Source of the DNA: a virus | Strand: one strand, 5' to 3' | DNA length: 64,000 bases | Virus record (IMG/VR): IMGVR_UViG_3300022699_000302 | Coordinates: 64,001 to 128,000 of that record | Shown here: positions 1,806 through 58,942 of the stretch, one piece after another | How the letters are laid out: each line of letters opens with the position of its first letter | How positions within the stretch are numbered: position 1 is the first letter of the stretch | Position numbers and translations under genes: made by a program | The notes under the pieces: model-generated | The model's database searches: none | What the model was told of the DNA's origin: nothing | What the model saw: the letters and a program-made list of their open reading frames with translations, nothing else

Positions 1806-2323
1806 ACCTCCCAGGTAACTTCGTCTTTGATTTCACACCGCTTGTCGAGACCGCCGTTCCAGACACTACCCCTACCGTACCGGATATAGAGCGTGGGAAC
1901 CCATACTCCTGGTACAAGCTTTTCCCAGGCATCGATGTGTTCTTGTGCCGGGACCCCGAAGATTCGAGGCTTTTTGTGTTGATTGAACAGCGGCGGGCAT
2001 TCGGTCTGCAGCCAATCGATCGAACACCATGCCAGGGAGAACTCTCCCTCAACAGCGGAGCACTCTATGCCTTTGTGACCCCACCTGCGCCCAAGACGGA
2101 AGTAGTGTCCTCTGATGACCCTTTCTTCGTAGTCGGGTTGGTACATCGAAACGTAGATGTCAGCGTTATAGGTGTAGATTCGTTTGGGTTGCTCACACCA
2201 GATTTCGGCTTCCCGGAGGAACACAGCAGTGGCTTCTTCAATCTTGATCTGCGGAAGGTTCTCGTTGATCCAACACTGACCGTCACCGATTCGGGCGAGG
2301 GTCAGGTGTCCGTCAGCTCCCAT
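1796..2323 (-). CDS. hypothetical protein
   Basis: start reassigned to MGADGH after GGAGG. Confidence 0.65.
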   Translation of the reverse strand: MGADGHLTLARIGDGQCWINENLPQIKIEEATAVFLREAEIWCEQPKRIYTYNADIYVSMYQPDYEERVIRGHYFRLGRRWGHKGIECSAVEGEFSLAWCSIDWLQTECPPLFNQHKKPRIFGVPAQEHIDAWEKLVPGVWVPTLYIRYGRGSVWNGGLDKRCEIKDEVTWEVWT

Positions 2324-2660
2324 TATCTTCCTCCTTTGCGTGTTTGAGGTGGTTTTCGATGGTGGTGGCCAGCCCCTCACCGTTTTGGCGGAGAAGCTGC
2401 GCGGCCTGTTCCAGCAACTTCTGGGAGTACTCGCGGTCTTCACACCACGAACACTGGTGTTTGCCCGGTCGGACGACCTGCAGAGGCGCCCCGCACCCAT
2501 CACACCACGCCGGTCCATGGCCGTCGTCGCTCTGTTCGATGCGGGCGAGTTGGTCGTGGACCTCGTCGTATCGAACCCACTCGCCATTCTCGTCGGGGAC
2601 AATAGCGGAAACGGTGCTTCCCGTGCAGTTTTCTCGGATCGTTACTGTGTATCGTTTCAT
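2313..2660 (-). CDS. hypothetical protein with CxxC...CxxC zinc motif
   Basis: start MKRYTV after GAGGAG; WCDGC...CSWC. Confidence 0.65.
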   Translation of the reverse strand: MKRYTVTIRENCTGSTVSAIVPDENGEWVRYDEVHDQLARIEQSDDGHGPAWCDGCGAPLQVVRPGKHQCSWCEDREYSQKLLEQAAQLLRQNGEGLATTIENHLKHAKEEDNGS

Positions 2661-2732
2661 CCTACTCCTCCTCGTTTTTGGTTTCGTCGGATGCAGCCAA
2701 GATCTCGAGCCTGAATTGGTCATGGGTTCTCC

Positions 2733-3140
2733 CTATAAATTCGGACTTGCCGCTGCGCAGATTTCGTATAGCTTCGCGCTGAATACGCGAGAGTTGACGC
2801 GAGAGTTGACCTGATCGGTTAGGACTGCGGTAACGAATTTTTTGATGTAAGGAAGACTTGCTGAGCGATTGAGTTCGACTCCTGTGCCGTTCTTTACTCG
2901 CTCCTGTACCGACTCGAAAGTCATACCCGATTCGATATCACTGTCTAACTTGCCCTTGCTAAAGAAGAATGTGCGGCCATGCAGGGTGTTCGCGGACTCG
3001 ACCCATATGTTGACATCTCCATCGGCAAACGATCCTGGACCAAACCTGAAAACGCGGAACAGCTGAAGCGGGTTTATATGGATATCGTTGAGTATCTGCC
3101 AACCTCGTTGGTCAAGGTTTAGAAGGGATGGCGTTGTCAT
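2733..3140 (-). CDS. hypothetical protein, RGWQIL paralog family
   Basis: DQRGWQILNDI...FRVFRF...DVNIW. Confidence 0.75.
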   Translation of the reverse strand: MTTPSLLNLDQRGWQILNDIHINPLQLFRVFRFGPGSFADGDVNIWVESANTLHGRTFFFSKGKLDSDIESGMTFESVQERVKNGTGVELNRSASLPYIKKFVTAVLTDQVNSRVNSRVFSAKLYEICAAASPNL

Positions 3141-3544
3141 GACAACTCCTTTTTTGGGGGATATGCCCGGATAAGATCGTTGATTGCGTCTGCATGAGCC
3201 TCGGATCGCTTCGACAGGGACAGCTGTTCCTCTATGTGATTTGAAAGCGCTTGAAGATAAAGGCGGATCTCAGTCTCGTCGGTCAGCTCTTCGGCCTCCT
3301 GTCTAGCTAAGTAGTCCTCCATATCGTGAAGAGTGCATCCCAGGCCACCAAAGCAGCCCCTCTTCCCGAGGTTGAAAAAGAAGGTGGCTTGGCGGAGACC
3401 CAGGGGAGCTATCCAGACGTTGACATCGCCGTTGCCGACATCTTCGGTGAACCGAAAAACCCGACACTGAAGGTCGGGCTCTCTGATATCTCGTAATATT
3501 TGCCAGCCTCGGTGATCATGCCCCGGCAGTTTCTTCACAGCCAT
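3137..3544 (-). CDS. hypothetical protein, RGWQIL paralog family
   Basis: DHRGWQILRDI...RVFRF...DVNVW; start MAVKK. Confidence 0.75.
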   Translation of the reverse strand: MAVKKLPGHDHRGWQILRDIREPDLQCRVFRFTEDVGNGDVNVWIAPLGLRQATFFFNLGKRGCFGGLGCTLHDMEDYLARQEAEELTDETEIRLYLQALSNHIEEQLSLSKRSEAHADAINDLIRAYPPKKELS

Positions 3545-15583: not shown

Positions 15584-15659
15584 GGGTTCCTTTCTCTCAA
15601 AGTAGAACAGGCTCCCCGAGGGGGCTAGGGAGCCTGTTCTGGTGGTGAGGTGAATGGGT

Positions 15660-15890
15660 TTAGTTGACGGGTTTGTCTTTGCCCTGCAGGTAGTCGCGGT
15701 TGACCTTCCAGAACTCCGCAAACTTCTCGGAGTCCCCGATCTTTTTCCCCAGCGACAGCGTCTCGTCCGGGGTCATTTTATTGGCCTTGTCTATCGCGGC
15801 CTCTACTTGATCGGCGGATTCGGGATCACCGTCGAACTCTAGCTCAACAGTGGTTTCCTCCGCAACTACAACTTGAATCTTTATGGGCAT
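15660..15890 (-). CDS. hypothetical protein directly downstream of array 1
   Basis: start MPIKIQ after GAGGA. Confidence 0.65.
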   Translation of the reverse strand: MPIKIQVVVAEETTVELEFDGDPESADQVEAAIDKANKMTPDETLSLGKKIGDSEKFAEFWKVNRDYLQGKDKPVN

Positions 15891-15900
15891 AAGATTTCCT

Positions 15901-16517
15901 CGGTTCACTCGCGGTCGACGTTGCTGTCCGTGTGTACGGCTCACTCTGCGGCAGTGTTACAGTTGTTGACGACGATTCACTTCTACGGCACGGCGTGGCT
16001 CACCTCGTACGGTTCACTCTTTTTGTACGGAACAGTTCTACGTCCCGGTTCACTCCTAATGAAGCAGTTCCAGGTCTAGGCTCAATCCTGTGTAGTGGTA
16101 CAGTCGGTGACGACGTTTCGATCAGCGCTTGCGGTGTAATCCAGAGTTGACGGCTCATTCCGGGTGCTTGGTACATTCGGGCGGGACGATTCATTCAACG
16201 AATCGGTACAATTTCTTTCTGCGATTGCTTTTCCTCTGAGAAACAGTCAAAGCCTACGGCTCATTTCATCTAAACAAAGCTTTCGCCAATGTCGATTCAT
16301 TCTGTTCATGCGTAGCTATCTTTTGATGTGATTCATTCGAGGCAAGCGGTACAGTCTCTTATGACGAGTCATTCGACGCAAACACTACAGTCAAATATGC
16401 CGATTCATTCGTTTGTTTTGGAGCAGTTCCTCCTGCCGATTCGATTTGTTACTCCGGTACTGACGTGTGTTACGTCTCGGTCGCGCGGATCGAAACAGTT
16501 ACCTGCTTCGATTAAAG
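15901..16517 (-). repeat. TIGR-like dual-repeat array 1 (about 17 units, 36-nt period)
   Basis: 18 edge motifs (+ strand CGRYTCAYT) from 15901 to 16509, spacing mostly 36; mid-unit motif CGGTACAGT; 9+9+9+9 layout. Confidence 0.8.
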
Positions 16518-16520
16518 GTG

Positions 16521-16650
16521 ATCAGGGCGACAAGGTGGCGTAGAGATACTAGAGCTCTTCCAGTTGAGCTACGGCCGAAGCCGACGGGACTCGAACCCGC
16601 AACCTCTTCGTTATCAGCGAAATGTAATCCCTACAGGTATTCGCCCTGAT
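16521..16650 (-). ncRNA. Y RNA (YrlA-like) 1
   Basis: 10-bp terminal helix AUCAGGGCGA/UCGCCCUGAU, 3' CCUUGUC; T arm GGUUCGAGUCC, UUCG-closed acceptor-like stem, then D arm UAGCUCA..AGAGC. Confidence 0.85.
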
Positions 16651-16651
16651 T

Positions 16652-16816
16652 TTAAATCTCATCGAATTCAGTGAGTTGGTGCTGGTCACGCTCTTTCGGG
16701 CTCATATTATCCCAGCAGCTCTTACAGACCACCGGGTACCCATGAGAATCCTCAAAGCAGCTTCCGCAGCACGAGCATTGAAGGCCTTCGACGATATCGT
16801 CAGCAATCTCTCCCAT
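16652..16816 (-). CDS. small Cys-rich protein (not in ORF track)
   Basis: 54 aa MGEIADDIVEGLQCSCCGSCF..GYPVVCKSC, translated by hand. Confidence 0.7.
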   Translation of the reverse strand: MGEIADDIVEGLQCSCCGSCFEDSHGYPVVCKSCWDNMSPKERDQHQLTEFDEI

Positions 16817-16975
16817 CACTTCTTCTTTGCGTGAGATAAAAAGAAGCCACCGACAGGTCGCGTCATAAGCCTATCCCCTCTCGTCATCGGCGGATTTCCA
16901 GGGAGACGTGACTACAGGGAGCTTCGTACCCAAGATGGGCTGTCGGTGGTGCCACTCCTCAAGCGGCAAAACAGA

Positions 16976-17113
16976 GAGAGTAACTGGGGGAAGGCTACTA
17001 TTCCCGGGGAAAGGCGGTCGCGACAGGTCAAACCTTTCCGTCTTCTTGTGTGACTTCAACCCTTCGTGCATCACACTCAGACGCCCTCGTTGTTTTGAAC
17101 ACCAGTTACTCTC
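16976..17113 (-). ncRNA. unknown structured RNA D
   Basis: 12-bp perfect terminal helix GAGAGUAACUGG/CCAGUUACUCUC plus internal arms. Confidence 0.6.
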
Positions 17114-17121
17114 AAAAGGCT

Positions 17122-17230
17122 AGCAGCAGGCGCGGGTCGTCCGTCTTTCTAAAGCGCCCCCGAGCGCGGGATCTGCGCCGGCGCCGGGCCGAGGTTTAGG
17201 TGCCTCGGTAGCCACCATGTTCCTGCTGCT
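17122..17230 (-). ncRNA. unknown structured RNA C
   Basis: 9-bp terminal helix AGCAGCAGG/CCUGCUGCU; internal CCGAGG/CCUCGG hairpin. Confidence 0.6.
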
Positions 17231-17243
17231 GTAAGGAAGGTCA

Positions 17244-17371
17244 GGGAGTAGGGTGTATACTGTGCCGTTCGGACTATAATCCTACCCACCTCTCGGCTTC
17301 GACGTGTATTTCAACACGCTAGGCCAGCCACCCATCGGCTATTTGCCTCTAGGCCACACTCGCCTACTCCC
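17244..17371 (-). ncRNA. unknown structured RNA B
   Basis: 9-bp terminal helix GGGAGUAGG/CCUACUCCC; internal hairpins. Confidence 0.6.
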
Positions 17372-17381
17372 ATAAAACCAT

Positions 17382-17494
17382 GCGCGGAGAAACTACTGGC
17401 CGGCAGTGGGTCCAAACCCGAAAGCCTATCCCGACTCAGCAGGGTGTGCCATCGAAGGCAGCAGATTCCTAAAGGTCTGCCACTCTCCCCGCGC
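17382..17494 (-). ncRNA. unknown structured RNA A
   Basis: terminal helix GCGCGG(GG)AGA/UCUCCGCGC plus internal hairpins; begins about 10 nt after the promoter motif. Confidence 0.55.
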
Positions 17495-17509
17495 GAAAAG
17501 TGTCTACTG

Positions 17510-17518
17510 TCTTAGGCC
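17510..17518 (-). promoter_or_regulatory. conserved phage promoter-like motif driving the ncRNA cluster
   Basis: GGCCTAAGA-CAG-TAGA. Confidence 0.7.
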
Positions 17519-17538
17519 GAACTCGGCCGGGAAAATGG

Positions 17539-17682
17539 TGCGGTGACAAGGTGTTGGAGAGATATTTACGCGCTCTATCCACTGAGCTACCCCACCACTT
17601 AGCTATGGTGGTGGGGGTGAGGAATCGAACCTCACGACCTCGTCCTTATGATGGAATGTAATCCCTCACGGCATTCACCGCA
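17539..17682 (-). ncRNA. Y RNA (YrlA-like) 2
   Basis: UGCGGUGA/UCACCGCA helix, 3' CCUUGUC; T arm GAGGUUCGAUUCCUC, 9-bp acceptor-like stem, D arm UAGCUCAGUGGAUAGAGC in permuted order. Confidence 0.85.
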
Positions 17683-17943
17683 TTTTCGTTTCGCGTCTCA
17701 GGCACAATCGGCTGCTACGACTCGTTCTTCATGTGCGCTACAGACGATATAGGCAACTCATTCAGACACTACGAGACCGTCTAGTTTGACGATTCGCTCG
17801 GTTGGTTCGAGACGCTCTAGAGATCCAGCTCGTTCTTCATGCACGTTGTGGTCATTTGAAGTGACTCACTCATTGACTACGGAGCCTGCGTTCAGCACGG
17901 TTCATTTTGCATCGGAGGATACGGTCGTCTGTGACGATTCAAT
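17682..17943 (-). repeat. TIGR-like dual-repeat array 2 (7 units)
   Basis: edge motifs at 17682, 17718, 17754, 17790, 17826, 17862, 17898, 17935 (six 36-nt spacings, one 37). Confidence 0.7.
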
Positions 17944-17949
17944 GTTGGC

Positions 17950-18019
17950 GGACCGACAAGGTTGTGTGGAGTCACGGTTCATTTCCAGTAATGATGTAGA
18001 CCCCTACGGCATTCGGTCC
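17950..18019 (-). ncRNA. short Y RNA 3 (no tRNA-like domain)
   Basis: GGACCGA/UCGGUCC helix; shares GAAUGCCGU..AGGG..UACAU and CCUUGUC with Y RNAs 1 and 2. Confidence 0.75.
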
Positions 18020-18072: not shown

Positions 18073-19686
18073 TTATACCAGGCCCTTCTTGATGGCGTCA
18101 ACCCAGTGATTCGTGCCCCCTCTGTCTTCCAGGAAGGTTGAGATGGCGTCGAACACTGAGTCATTGAACCCCCCAACATTCAGAACGTCGGGACGATTCA
18201 CGACCTGTGTGGTCGGGTGGGGCTGAAGGTCGATTAAGACCAACTTGGCATCGGGTCGGTCGGCTCGCTTTTTCCACTCATCCCAGTAATACTGCAGACC
18301 AGTACGATTCTTGGTGTAGTGGCGTGCAGGATCATTGGAGAAGTCCGCCCAGGACTCCATGTCCGAGAGAATGACAACAGCATCGAGATCGAATATCTTG
18401 TTGTCGATCAAGTACTGGATCGCCGAACTACAATCAGTCCCCCCGCCGGAACGTGCCAGCTGATTTACCAGGGTAAAAATGGAGTCACGGTCGGTAACCG
18501 ACGCGAGTTTCGCTGCAGTATCAAATTGGACGACCTTTGCGTCGGGCTGGGAGTGAAGGATGCATGCTGCCATGAGCGCTGCAACCTCACAGCATCGCAC
18601 GTCCCGGGCACCGGCACGCCTCCAGCCTCCCCGGGTGGTGGCCTTACCGACTGCGAGAGCTTGCATCGAGTACGACACGTCCACGCAAACAGCTGCCTTT
18701 CCGAAACGGGGCACGTTATCGATCGAGATCTCGACCGTATCGTGCAAGGCATTTTTGATCTTGGTCGGAATGCCTTCATTGAGGTGGCGGTAGGTCTGGT
18801 AGAGCTGGTACGGGAAGATCCGCTGCTTCTTGATTTGCTCCACATCGGTCAGCTGTTCGACTGCATACTCGACGAATCCCGTATCCTTGAGCACTTCATG
18901 GCGCTCCAGGGTATTGAGGTTCATCCGAAGAGCATGAAGTCCCATCTGGTGCCCCAAGACCTTCCAGTCCCGGGTCGAGAGATCGGGGATCGAAGTCAGG
19001 AGGCGAAACTCGATGCCCTTGGGCTTGCGGTTGCGATACCCCGCCTTCCATTCCTCGAAAACCTTCGCTACTTCGGGGAGCAGCTCCTCGTTGTAGTTGC
19101 GCCCGATCAGGTATGCATACAGGTTTGAGCGGGCTTGATCCGAGGGCTTGGGATGGATCATGTGAATGATGTCAGCGATCGACGGATCGTTACCAACTGA
19201 ATCCCTGAACAGAGCGGCGGGATGACGCTTGTTCAACCAGTGCTCGATCAGCTTCTTCAGCCAGGTGCCGAAGCTTTTTCGACCGAACCGCCCCGAACGA
19301 ATGAATTGCGCGAAGTTGCGGAGCATCCTCCCGTTATCGATCACATGCGGGAATGCCTCGTTGAACTTAACACGGTCGACTCCGGTCTGACTTGCCGCGA
19401 ACGCCATGAGAGCGGCCGGCATATCCTTCATCCACGCTTTCTTGCGCGAGTACACCGCGACATCGATGACGAAGTTCGGGTCGACCTTGCGCGCAGCCTC
19501 CAGGAGGGTCTCGAGCTGCTTCTCGCCGGTGGCGTAGAACGTGTTGTAAAAAGTACCGGTACACGCGTATTGTGCCAAGAGCTCTTCCGGATCGAGCTTC
19601 ATAGCGGCGCCTCCAGCCTCGTTGACCGTATGCTTGACCTCGATCTCGTGGGCCTTGGCTGACTTGAACATTTTCTTGTTCGCCAT
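18073..19686 (-). CDS. rsr: Ro60-related TROVE/vWA RNA-binding protein
   Basis: TROVE region (VNEAGG.., FGRKSFG, ALRMNLNT, RIFPYQ) plus vWA VCVDVSYSM, GGTDC; start MANKK after AGGAG. Confidence 0.9.
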   Translation of the reverse strand: MANKKMFKSAKAHEIEVKHTVNEAGGAAMKLDPEELLAQYACTGTFYNTFYATGEKQLETLLEAARKVDPNFVIDVAVYSRKKAWMKDMPAALMAFAASQTGVDRVKFNEAFPHVIDNGRMLRNFAQFIRSGRFGRKSFGTWLKKLIEHWLNKRHPAALFRDSVGNDPSIADIIHMIHPKPSDQARSNLYAYLIGRNYNEELLPEVAKVFEEWKAGYRNRKPKGIEFRLLTSIPDLSTRDWKVLGHQMGLHALRMNLNTLERHEVLKDTGFVEYAVEQLTDVEQIKKQRIFPYQLYQTYRHLNEGIPTKIKNALHDTVEISIDNVPRFGKAAVCVDVSYSMQALAVGKATTRGGWRRAGARDVRCCEVAALMAACILHSQPDAKVVQFDTAAKLASVTDRDSIFTLVNQLARSGGGTDCSSAIQYLIDNKIFDLDAVVILSDMESWADFSNDPARHYTKNRTGLQYYWDEWKKRADRPDAKLVLIDLQPHPTTQVVNRPDVLNVGGFNDSVFDAISTFLEDRGGTNHWVDAIKKGLV

Positions 19687-19730: not shown

Positions 19731-19739
19731 CCTTAGGCC
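19731..19739 (-). promoter_or_regulatory. promoter-like motif upstream of ro60
   Basis: GGCCTAAGG-TAGA variant. Confidence 0.55.
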
Positions 19740-24746: not shown

Positions 24747-24780
24747 AAAAAGAAAGGGCTCCTTAGGAGGAGCCCTTCTT
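24747..24780 (-). terminator. intrinsic terminator after glnS
   Basis: AAGGGCTCCT/AGGAGCCCTT hairpin plus U-tract. Confidence 0.75.
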
Positions 24781-26364
24781 TTGTTTCTTCTTCCACGGAT
24801 CTTTCAGTGGCACAACTTCGACTAAGTCGATACGGGTACCTACGATACAGACTTTGTAGTATCCTTTTCGCATGAGCTGCACGATCTGCCCGTGTTGGAG
24901 GTCAAGAGGCTCCATAAAGGCTATTGGGAGCTCTTTCATGCTGTCCTCATTGAACTCTCCGTTTTCGTCGAACAGGGGACCCAACTGGTAGATGTTGACC
25001 GGTCGAGCTCCTACGGAGACCCAATGGATCGTGCCTTTGACTTTTTCTTCCGGAAGGAGCTCACACTCGATACCGGTTAGATCCTCGTCCACCTGGAACG
25101 GTCCTACGTGCTTCAGGATACCGGCACCCTTGATCCGGACCTTACCTCCAGGCTTCAACCGTTTGAACTTCGGTGGCGGGTCCCCGGAGAAGTCATCCTT
25201 CTCGATCATGATGAAGTTGTCAACGAGAACCTTCCGAGTCCCGGCTTCGGGATCTTCGGGGTTGTTCTCGATCTCGACATACTCGCCGGCGGGCGATGAC
25301 AGATTGGAGATCCGAACCGATAACGGGTCGAAGACGCACATCACTCGCTGGGATGTCTTGTTGTAGCGGTCCCGGGCGATGTTCTCGAGCTTGTTCGGTG
25401 CGATCACCGAGTGGGTCTTGGACACCCCGATCTCTTCACAGAAGTCCTGGAGCATCTCGGGGGTATACCCCCGATTGCGGAGACCACGGAGAGTAGGCAT
25501 GCGGGGATCGTCCCATCCGTCGACCCTCTTGTCGTAGACCAGTTTACGGAGCTTGCGCTTTGAAAGCACCACTCCATCGACTTCGCATCTTGCGAATTCA
25601 CGCTGTTTTGGGAGGTAGTGGGTGTCGTAAACGGCATCATCGAATTCGGCGTGTTTGAGGAACCAGTTGTAGAGTTGGCGGTGCTCTTCGAATTCGAGAG
25701 TGCAGAGTGAGTGGGTGATCCTCTCGAGATAATCGACCAGAGGATGGCTGAAGTCGTAGCTGGGGTAGATGCAGTACTCAGCGCCGGTGCGGTGGTGAGG
25801 AGTGTAGATGATGCGGTACATCACAGGATCCCGCATCAGAGCACTGGGGTGCTTCCAGTCGATCTTGGCCCTGAGGGTGCACTCACCACCCTTGTAGATC
25901 CCCTTGAACATGTTGTCCCAACGGGCCAGGTTCTCAGAGATCGTGCGGTCGCGATAAGGGCTGGGCTTGAGCTCCTTGTTCGAGTCGCGGTAGTCGGCAG
26001 CATCTCGCGGCGAGAGATCACAGACATAAGCATCACCGCACTCCACCATCTTTCGAGCAACAGTTAGGAGATCCGGAAAGTAGTCCGAGGTGTAGGTGAC
26101 CTCGGGTTTGAATCGTAGTAGCCACGACAGATCTTCAATGATGGCCTTCTCATAGATCGGGGATTCGGTCAAAGGGTTGGTATCATCGAATCTGAGGTGG
26201 CATTTGCCCATGTACTGGGCGGCGATGCCGAAGTTGAGACACGCTGCTTTAGCATGCCCTAGATGCAGGTATCCGTTGGGTTCTGGCGGGAACCGAGTTC
26301 GCACCTCGGAGTACCGCCTTTCTTCGAGGTCCTTATCGATCTCGAGGGTGATGAAGTTCTTCAT
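24763..26364 (-). CDS. glnS: glutaminyl-tRNA synthetase
   Basis: RTRFPPEPNGYLHLGHAK (HIGH), RFDDTNP, VLSKRKL, GWDDPRMPT, KVKGTIHWVS. Confidence 0.93.
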   Translation of the reverse strand: MKNFITLEIDKDLEERRYSEVRTRFPPEPNGYLHLGHAKAACLNFGIAAQYMGKCHLRFDDTNPLTESPIYEKAIIEDLSWLLRFKPEVTYTSDYFPDLLTVARKMVECGDAYVCDLSPRDAADYRDSNKELKPSPYRDRTISENLARWDNMFKGIYKGGECTLRAKIDWKHPSALMRDPVMYRIIYTPHHRTGAEYCIYPSYDFSHPLVDYLERITHSLCTLEFEEHRQLYNWFLKHAEFDDAVYDTHYLPKQREFARCEVDGVVLSKRKLRKLVYDKRVDGWDDPRMPTLRGLRNRGYTPEMLQDFCEEIGVSKTHSVIAPNKLENIARDRYNKTSQRVMCVFDPLSVRISNLSSPAGEYVEIENNPEDPEAGTRKVLVDNFIMIEKDDFSGDPPPKFKRLKPGGKVRIKGAGILKHVGPFQVDEDLTGIECELLPEEKVKGTIHWVSVGARPVNIYQLGPLFDENGEFNEDSMKELPIAFMEPLDLQHGQIVQLMRKGYYKVCIVGTRIDLVEVVPLKDPWKKKQKKGSS

Positions 26365-58787: not shown

Positions 58788-58863
58788 TGGTGCAGGGAGA
58801 AGGACTCGAACCTTCATTTCCGAGCTTAAGAGCTCGGGTCCTAACCAATTGGATGATCCCTGC
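58788..58863 (-). tRNA. tRNA, Lys(CUU)-like, with non-canonical anticodon loop
   Basis: GCAGGGA/UCCCUGC, ACCA end; arm CCGAGC-UCUUAA-GCUCGG gives a 6-nt (or 8-nt) loop. Confidence 0.75.
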
Positions 58864-58864
58864 T

Positions 58865-58942
58865 TGGCGGTCCCGGCGGGATTCGAACCCACACCCTCCT
58901 GAGTTTAGAGCCCAGGCGCGCTGCCAGTCGCGCTTCGGGACC
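58865..58942 (-). tRNA. amber suppressor tRNA (anticodon CUA)
   Basis: GGUCCCG/CGGGACC, GCCA end; 6-bp anticodon stem CCUGGG/CUCAGG, loop CU-CUA-AA; canonical D-loop GG and T-loop UUCGAAU. Confidence 0.85.

Follow-up and report, generated by a model that had tools for sequence, protein, structure and literature searches.

The closest described counterparts of the locus presented here are the dual-repeat TIGR-TasA systems (Faure et al., 2025, PMC12045711; Xu et al., 2026, preprint 10.64898/2026.09.09.750476), whose TasA proteins have been published as RNA-guided repressors (10.64898/2026.09.09.750476). The phage genome under study is complete, with 194,114 bp and 52% GC; the window analyzed in detail is a stretch of 64,000 nt (positions 64,001 to 128,000 of IMG/VR record IMGVR_UViG_3300022699_000302), and its numbering is used for all features of this phage. 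The array layout in this phage matches that of the TIGR-TasA systems, and both have box C/D-like motifs on the two repeats, a truncated first edge repeat, and a phage-borne, nuclease-less Nop-domain TasA with a coiled coil and a C-terminal Tyr/His loop. In contrast to these systems, the arrays of this phage are located 21–24 kb from the tas gene, are split in two, and lie flush with Y RNAs in a Ro60 locus; further differences are the small ORF that follows the array, the unusually degenerate repeats, and the absence of a ParB-like partner beside tasA.

The TIGR-TasH system of Salicola phage CGphi29 (PDB 9W03, 21KL; PMC13421893) resembles the present one in its 10-nt repeats, its 8+8-nt spacers (16 nt in total), and a Nop domain with a Y289/H296-type dyad; CGphi29 TasH is also the best structural match to the phage TasA, at a sequence identity of only ~16–17% over the fold. 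However, CGphi29 TasH carries an N-terminal HNH nuclease, cuts DNA, and is encoded next to its array, whereas the TasA of this phage is without a nuclease domain. The surrounding RNA genes have their counterparts in bacterial Rsr (Ro60)-YrlA/YrlB loci (RF02553) and in Ro60-encoding actinophages, where the Ro60 gene is likewise followed by Y RNAs that combine a Ro-binding stem with a tRNA-like domain (here below the gathering score of the Rfam model); yet interleaving with guide arrays was seen only here and in one close relative, and in none of 80 other viral Ro60 loci examined. Finally, orphan or distal CRISPR arrays that act in trans offer a parallel in that the array is separated from the effector gene and the repeat type fits the effector family, although RNA architecture, protein family and targeting are different (here two short spacers, both DNA strands, and no PAM).

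Structure of TIGR Array 1

The stretch at 15901–16518 (minus strand) is a real dual-repeat TIGR-type array of 17 units of ~36 nt, closed by a terminal edge repeat at 15901–15910. A period-36 array had been proposed at this position in a sequence-only reading of the window, and the periodicity is borne out by comparison with 2000 shuffled controls: at lag 36, the match fraction across 15901–16518 was 0.397 against a shuffle mean of 0.255 (z 8.0), and lags 18, 54, and 72 gave z values of 7.5, 5.6, and 5.5, respectively. A lag-36 scan of all 194,114 bp of the genome produced a sole other peak, a period-3 acidic coding stretch. Information content by alignment column delimits the units; columns 1–10 and 19–28 are conserved and columns 11–18 and 29–36 are variable, so that a unit, read on the minus strand, begins with an edge repeat of 10 nt and continues with spacer A (8 nt), the loop repeat (10 nt), and spacer B (8 nt). 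The second motif that had been reported 18 nt after the edge motif was recovered, and the earlier estimate of ~9-nt spacers is replaced by 10-nt repeats and 8-nt spacers. Edge and loop repeats (consensus GAATGAATCG and GACTGTACCG, respectively) both follow the pattern G-A-x-x-G-x-x-x-C-G(A), in which xG resembles box D and YCG resembles box C; such motifs border every spacer, although six units have one broken box.

The repeats are not uniform. A strict degenerate edge motif occurs 12 times in array 1, four times in a second array near 17862–17975, and 16 times in the remaining ~63 kb of the window; 12 of the 18 edge positions listed previously fit the strict motif, and the other six are degenerate copies. 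A fully canonical build is seen in approximately 10 of the 17 units, and six are affected by a damaged box or by a spacer of irregular length, one spacer being only 4 nt long; of the guides counted before as up to 17, perhaps 10–11 look intact. Unit lengths are mostly 36 nt (12 units), with two units each of 37 and 35 nt and one of 32 nt; these irregular spacings, which had been noted as frame-breaking, were confirmed and imply that no reading frame is kept, and none of the ORFs of the region is a long one spanning the array. The first edge repeat (16509–16518) is truncated at its 5′ end with the 3′ half left, as it is in a related phage described below. At its other end the array closes with a full edge repeat, followed by a 76-aa ORF and, 260 nt beyond the array, by a hairpin. 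The assignment to dual-repeat TIGR arrays, which the sequence-only reading had put forward, gains support from the agreement of the layout with published arrays, from the TasA encoded in the same phage, and from the same build of the arrays in relatives.

The Ro60-Y RNA Locus and Array 2

On the minus strand, the first half of the locus runs from a promoter-like motif (19739–19732) through ro60, a hairpin, a mini Y RNA candidate, and array 2 to Y RNA 2; the second half continues with another promoter-like motif (17518–17511), ~860 nt, Y RNA 1, array 1, the 76-aa ORF, and a strong hairpin. The Ro60/Rsr-like protein (537 aa; 18073–19686, minus strand) contains the Pfam domains TROVE and vWA_Ro60 and has thousands of homologs, the best bacterial ones from Acidobacteriota and Myxococcota MAGs; its closest phage counterpart is that of Myxococcus phage Mx1 (41.5% identity), which is encoded in a tRNA island of a phage that has no TasA. 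Two YrlA-like Y RNAs matched Rfam model RF02553 over its full length, Y RNA 1 (16521–16647, minus strand) with 56.1 bits and E 3.3e-11, and Y RNA 2 (17537–17681, minus strand) with 44.6 bits and E 7e-8, both scores being below the gathering score of 69. A candidate for a third, stem-only mini Y RNA (17950–18019, minus strand) lies between the Ro60 gene and array 2; its predicted fold has −23.5 kcal/mol (z −1.9), and it is similar to the Ro-binding stem in its internal loop and its terminal stem of 7 bp, while Rfam yielded no match at 17950–18019. At the position of the mini form, the related phage carries a YrlA-like RNA. A search for the 3′ strand motif of the Y RNA in JGI metagenome contigs returned seven matches in unrelated coding DNA, which were discarded as chance.

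Array 2 (17692–17944, minus strand) comprises seven units that share the 10/8/10/8 build but are more degenerate; it is located downstream of the Ro60 gene between two Y RNAs, and runs to ~10 nt from the 5′ end of Y RNA 2. Array 1 is placed even closer to its neighbor, starting 3 nt past the 3′ end of Y RNA 1, for which an orthologue exists at the same place in the related phage. The small acidic ORF (76 aa; 15660–15890, minus strand) comes directly after array 1, and its counterpart after the array of the related phage is 76% identical. The GC-rich hairpin that follows (15607–15640), read from the sequence and not called by a terminator scan, is a possible end of the transcript.

The promoter-like motif GGCCTAAG at 17511–17518 (minus strand), with a conserved downstream TAGA, is one of 20 copies in the window, where 2.6 would be expected; 19 copies lie on the minus strand and precede genes. 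Nearly all are found 20–60 nt ahead of start codons, often just past T-runs, with TAGA following ~6 nt later, and include the sites 17511–17518, 19732–19739, 39568–39575, and 41029–41036. GGCCTAAG is probably a phage-specific promoter, and the copy at 17511–17518 is the likely start of a transcript carrying Y RNA 1 and array 1. Between this motif and Y RNA 1, the ~860 nt at 16650–17510 (minus strand) contain no convincing long ORF, only a Cys-rich ORF of 55 aa (16652–16819) and another of 67 aa; parts of the region are 80–89% identical in the related phage, whose contig opens with a tRNA match (L211:1–60). This region suggests the presence of more structured RNAs.

Near the Ro60 genes of other phages, period-36 signals were traced to a hexamer satellite and to coding 18-nt repeats and were rejected as TIGR arrays. 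In two loci (L156:15003–16764 and L161:11130–12430), long repeats with an 18-nt period are located a few kb from Ro60; they look like repeats rich in Gly, Ser, and Tyr that are coded on the opposite strand, mimic the lag-18/36 signal, and represent a class of false positives for TIGR scans.

A Nuclease-Less TasA

Sequence and fold matches together establish the 351-aa product of 39577–40632 (minus strand) as a nuclease-less, Nop-domain TIGR-associated protein, TasA. The earlier reading had envisaged a TasA-like protein as partner of the array; such a protein is indeed encoded in the same phage, but its gene is found ~23 kb from array 1 and not nearby, with both arrays at a distance of 21–24 kb and on the same strand as tasA, as the orientation of the repeats indicates. 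By sequence, the protein matched the solved TasH structure (E 6.8e-6) and also TasR (9MTY); a profile of 41 TasA homologs aligned with TasR 9MTY across the Nop domain including the C-terminal loop (E 4.5e-22). The AF2 model has a pLDDT of 91, and all ten Foldseek matches in the PDB below E 1e-3 were TasH or TasR TIGR complexes with a probability of 1.00. Pfam returned a weak IS110 C-terminal match alone and no nuclease family; a six-frame search of the whole phage with the Pfam Nop model (PF01798) had no match, since Tas proteins are too divergent for this model. Ahead of the region aligned to TasR residue 123 there are only ~40 residues, partly disordered and then helical; without any HNH- or RuvC-like sequence before the coiled coil, the protein is a TasA.

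Tyr322 and His331 of TasA align with Y289 and H296 of SpTasH, the published processing dyad for pre-tigRNA (PMC13421893). The Tyr322 column is Y, F, or W in all 41 relatives, and His331 is invariant (41/41); by this alignment, TasA keeps the predicted Tyr/His pre-tigRNA processing dyad of dual-repeat systems. The flanks of tasA contain a terminator-like hairpin, ribosome-binding sites, and neighboring ORFs only; neither an array nor an adjoining ParB-like partner was found there. Single-protein scans of viral contigs with TasA and with Ro60 identified no close relatives, and tblastn of TasA against a phage collection gave no match. The opposite strand encodes, immediately upstream of the tasA cassette, a 796-aa protein (41066–43456, plus strand) in which a LigD-type 3′-phosphoesterase domain is joined to an ATP-dependent DNA ligase with its OB domain.

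Spacer Evolution in a Related Phage

A related phage was recovered from one Logan sample (SRR17165164); its TasA, Ro60, and small ORF are 86, 83, and 76% identical, respectively, to those of the present phage. Its tasA is flanked directly by ORFs, and its array region has the order Cys-rich ORF, YrlA-like RNA (53.6 bits), array of ~14 units, and small ORF; the repeats have the same shape as those of array 1, and the junction of Y RNA and array is kept, including the truncated first edge repeat. The split organization, with arrays away from tasA and flush with Y RNAs in the Ro60 locus, is thus conserved in the related phage.

The two arrays are collinear unit for unit, except that the related phage has no counterparts of units 1–3 and 13 of array 1. 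Identity between them averages 70% in the edge repeats, 64% in the loop repeats, and 60% in the spacers, yet among the 26 aligned spacers six are identical, compared to none among 28 repeats. Units 8 and 14 account for two identical spacers each, and units 9 and 16 for one each (spacer A); for unit 14, the match is 16 of 16 positions in the spacers and 12 of 20 in the repeats. The variance of spacer identity exceeded that of all 5000 permutations, whereas the variance of repeat identity was ordinary (p 0.79). Spacer identity is bimodal, with the other spacers at the random level and the 36-nt register still kept across 13 aligned units. In this single genome pair, the pattern suggests purifying selection on particular guides together with in-place replacement of others.

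Arrays of Related TasA Proteins

The TasA clade was compared across 80 viral loci with TasA relatives at 36–46% identity. An array with a period of ~36 is located within 500 nt of tas in 70 of these 80 loci, and within 2 kb in 74; at locus L023, the array adjoins tas only across the ends of a circularly permuted record. A metagenomic relative (L002) also has a short array just past tas. The arrays of 20 relatives have the same 10/8/10/8 build, 8-nt spacers, and repeat shape. Local lag-36 identity ranges from ~0.4 to 0.57 in this phage, compared to 0.55–0.72 in the relatives, and marks the repeats here as the more degenerate ones.

Two complete genomes depart from the adjacent arrangement. In one (G001), strong period-36 arrays at 74256–76588 are 10–12 kb from tas (86538–87485); in the other (G028), a strong period-36 array at 25792–26217 is 22.5 kb from tas (2266–3255). 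Neither genome has an array beside tas, and neither has a Y RNA near its remote arrays. With these two additional genomes, detached TIGR arrays are a recurrent phenomenon; they are a minority arrangement, yet not unique to this phage, and adjacency to tas reflects how arrays were searched for rather than mechanism. A search of viral contigs with the degenerate array pattern found nothing.

Target Searches

A target whose top strand consists of spacer A and then spacer B in reverse complement is in keeping with the 8-nt 3′ overhangs that have been published, and agrees with the joining rule that had been suggested for this array. Self-targets were searched in the 194-kb genome with both spacer orders; no match had one mismatch or fewer, and counts at two to three mismatches equaled those of the controls. 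Allowing gaps of 0–3 nt, targets in 2.1 Mb of retrieved loci amounted to one match, at chance level, and searches of GTDB genomes with the conserved guides likewise gave chance-level results only. The 16-mer of unit 14 had at least 120 exact matches in GTDB, against a random expectation of ~280 (a rough estimate, 2 × 596 Gb / 4^16). A cluster of these matches in Rhodobacterales was rejected as a single conserved site in one gene, and the other conserved guides did not rise above control level in those genomes. A Blastocatellia MAG with exact sites for units 14 and 9 was also treated as a chance find (rough p ~0.05 before multiple testing), since its GC content is 42% compared to 52% in the phage, both sites are coding, and controls match as often.

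tRNA-Related Genes in the Window

Two adjacent tRNA genes are located at 58788–58942 (minus strand); one has a CTA (amber-reading) anticodon and was called Pyl by ARAGORN, and the second was called with a four-base anticodon loop. Genome-wide recoding of TAG was rejected, as this codon is the stop of 90 among 287 long ORFs. A full-length class I Glu/Gln-tRNA synthetase with the catalytic and both anticodon-binding domains (24763–26364, minus strand; E 4e-90) may be connected with the suppressor tRNA.

Function of the Arrays

In our assessment, arrays 1 and 2 are, with good probability, dual-repeat TIGR arrays that supply guides in trans to the TasA encoded 21–24 kb away in the same phage. Minus-strand transcription from the motif at 17518–17511 would proceed through the ~860-nt RNA, Y RNA 1, array 1, and the small ORF; TasA dimers would bind the box D/box C-like pairs of edge and loop repeats and cut inside the edge repeats via Tyr322 and His331, yielding 36-nt tigRNAs with 8+8-nt spacers. 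The resulting RNP would bind a 16-bp DNA site, spacer A pairing with one strand and spacer B with the adjacent stretch of the other strand; because TasA is without a nuclease, the expected effect is a block of transcription or of other DNA transactions and not a cut. RNA-guided DNA binding and repression are the likely function of TasA, by homology to characterized TasA proteins, and family resemblance points to arrays and TasA as a putative cognate pair across 23 kb; we infer the corresponding steps of transcription, processing, DNA binding, and repression in this phage. Features that count against a guide-array function are the ORF that follows array 1 in place of an immediate terminator, the repeats that are more degenerate than in relatives, the six or so damaged units, and the lack of targets above chance in the genome of the phage itself.

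The position of the arrays raises the question of whether TIGR arrays and Ro60-Y RNA could form one co-transcribed, co-processed RNA system, coupled and not merely adjacent, which we regard as improbable. In such a system, the Y RNAs would punctuate the precursor, and their tRNA-like domain and Ro60-binding stem would define the pre-tigRNA ends through RNase P/Z-type or Ro60/exonuclease processing; alternatively, a Y RNA would stabilize or load the RNA, with the distant TasA dicing it. The tight spacing at both junctions (array 1 starting 3 nt past Y RNA 1, array 2 ending ~10 nt before Y RNA 2) is consistent with coupling, as is the retention of the Y RNA-array junction with its truncated edge repeat in the related phage, although that phage is so close that shared synteny is expected anyway. 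Similarly, Ro60 and YrlA-like RNA are present in six of 31 complete phage genomes encoding this TasA clade, but the other phages among them have their arrays next to tas, at 7–23 kb from Ro60; conversely, this TasA is found in none of 47 other Ro60-carrying viral records, and a true TIGR array within 10 kb in none of 80 Ro60 loci. The remote arrays of the two other phages do without a nearby Y RNA, and TasA retains its own predicted processing dyad, which further argues against coupling. The co-occurrence of Ro60 and TasA may be lineage-specific, and the simplest reading of the locus is a non-coding-RNA island into which the arrays moved. A YrlA-like RNA directly upstream of Ro60 was observed in genomes G005, G026, G032, G035, and G047 (loci L086, L098, and L100–L102). 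If true, coupling would connect Ro60-Y RNA with Nop-type guide RNPs, two RNP systems between which no link has been made before; the flush Y RNA-array junctions in a Ro60 locus provide a testable idea on how the precursor is made.

The degenerate repeats of array 1, its six damaged units, and a spacer cut to 4 nt, together with the still weaker array 2 and the target searches that found none, could also be attributed to a decaying relic that moved away from tasA and no longer yields working guides. This explanation appears less probable still; tasA is intact, with conserved predicted catalytic and family-invariant residues, and six spacers are identical between the two phages though the flanking repeats have diverged to ~67% identity, with the 36-nt register maintained through 13 aligned units. 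A chance or coding repeat (a repetitive protein or a satellite) without guide function, a possibility brought up by the satellite and coding repeats behind some period-36/18 signals near other phage Ro60 genes, can be practically dismissed, as units of 32, 35, and 37 nt break every frame, no long ORF is present, conserved blocks alternate with non-repeating 8-mers, and lag-3 identity is low.

Implications for TIGR-Tas Systems

The comparison of the two phages is a rare look at the evolution of TIGR spacers, with a bearing on natural targets and on spacer acquisition. TIGR-Tas systems were described only in 2025, and the cataloging of their arrays has to date centered on the surroundings of tas genes; whether arrayless Tas genes draw on guides from another place was a question that the 2026 survey did not settle. 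With the arrays of this TasA at a distance of over 20 kb, and with remote arrays in two further phages, scanning of whole genomes may resolve some of the “arrayless” systems.
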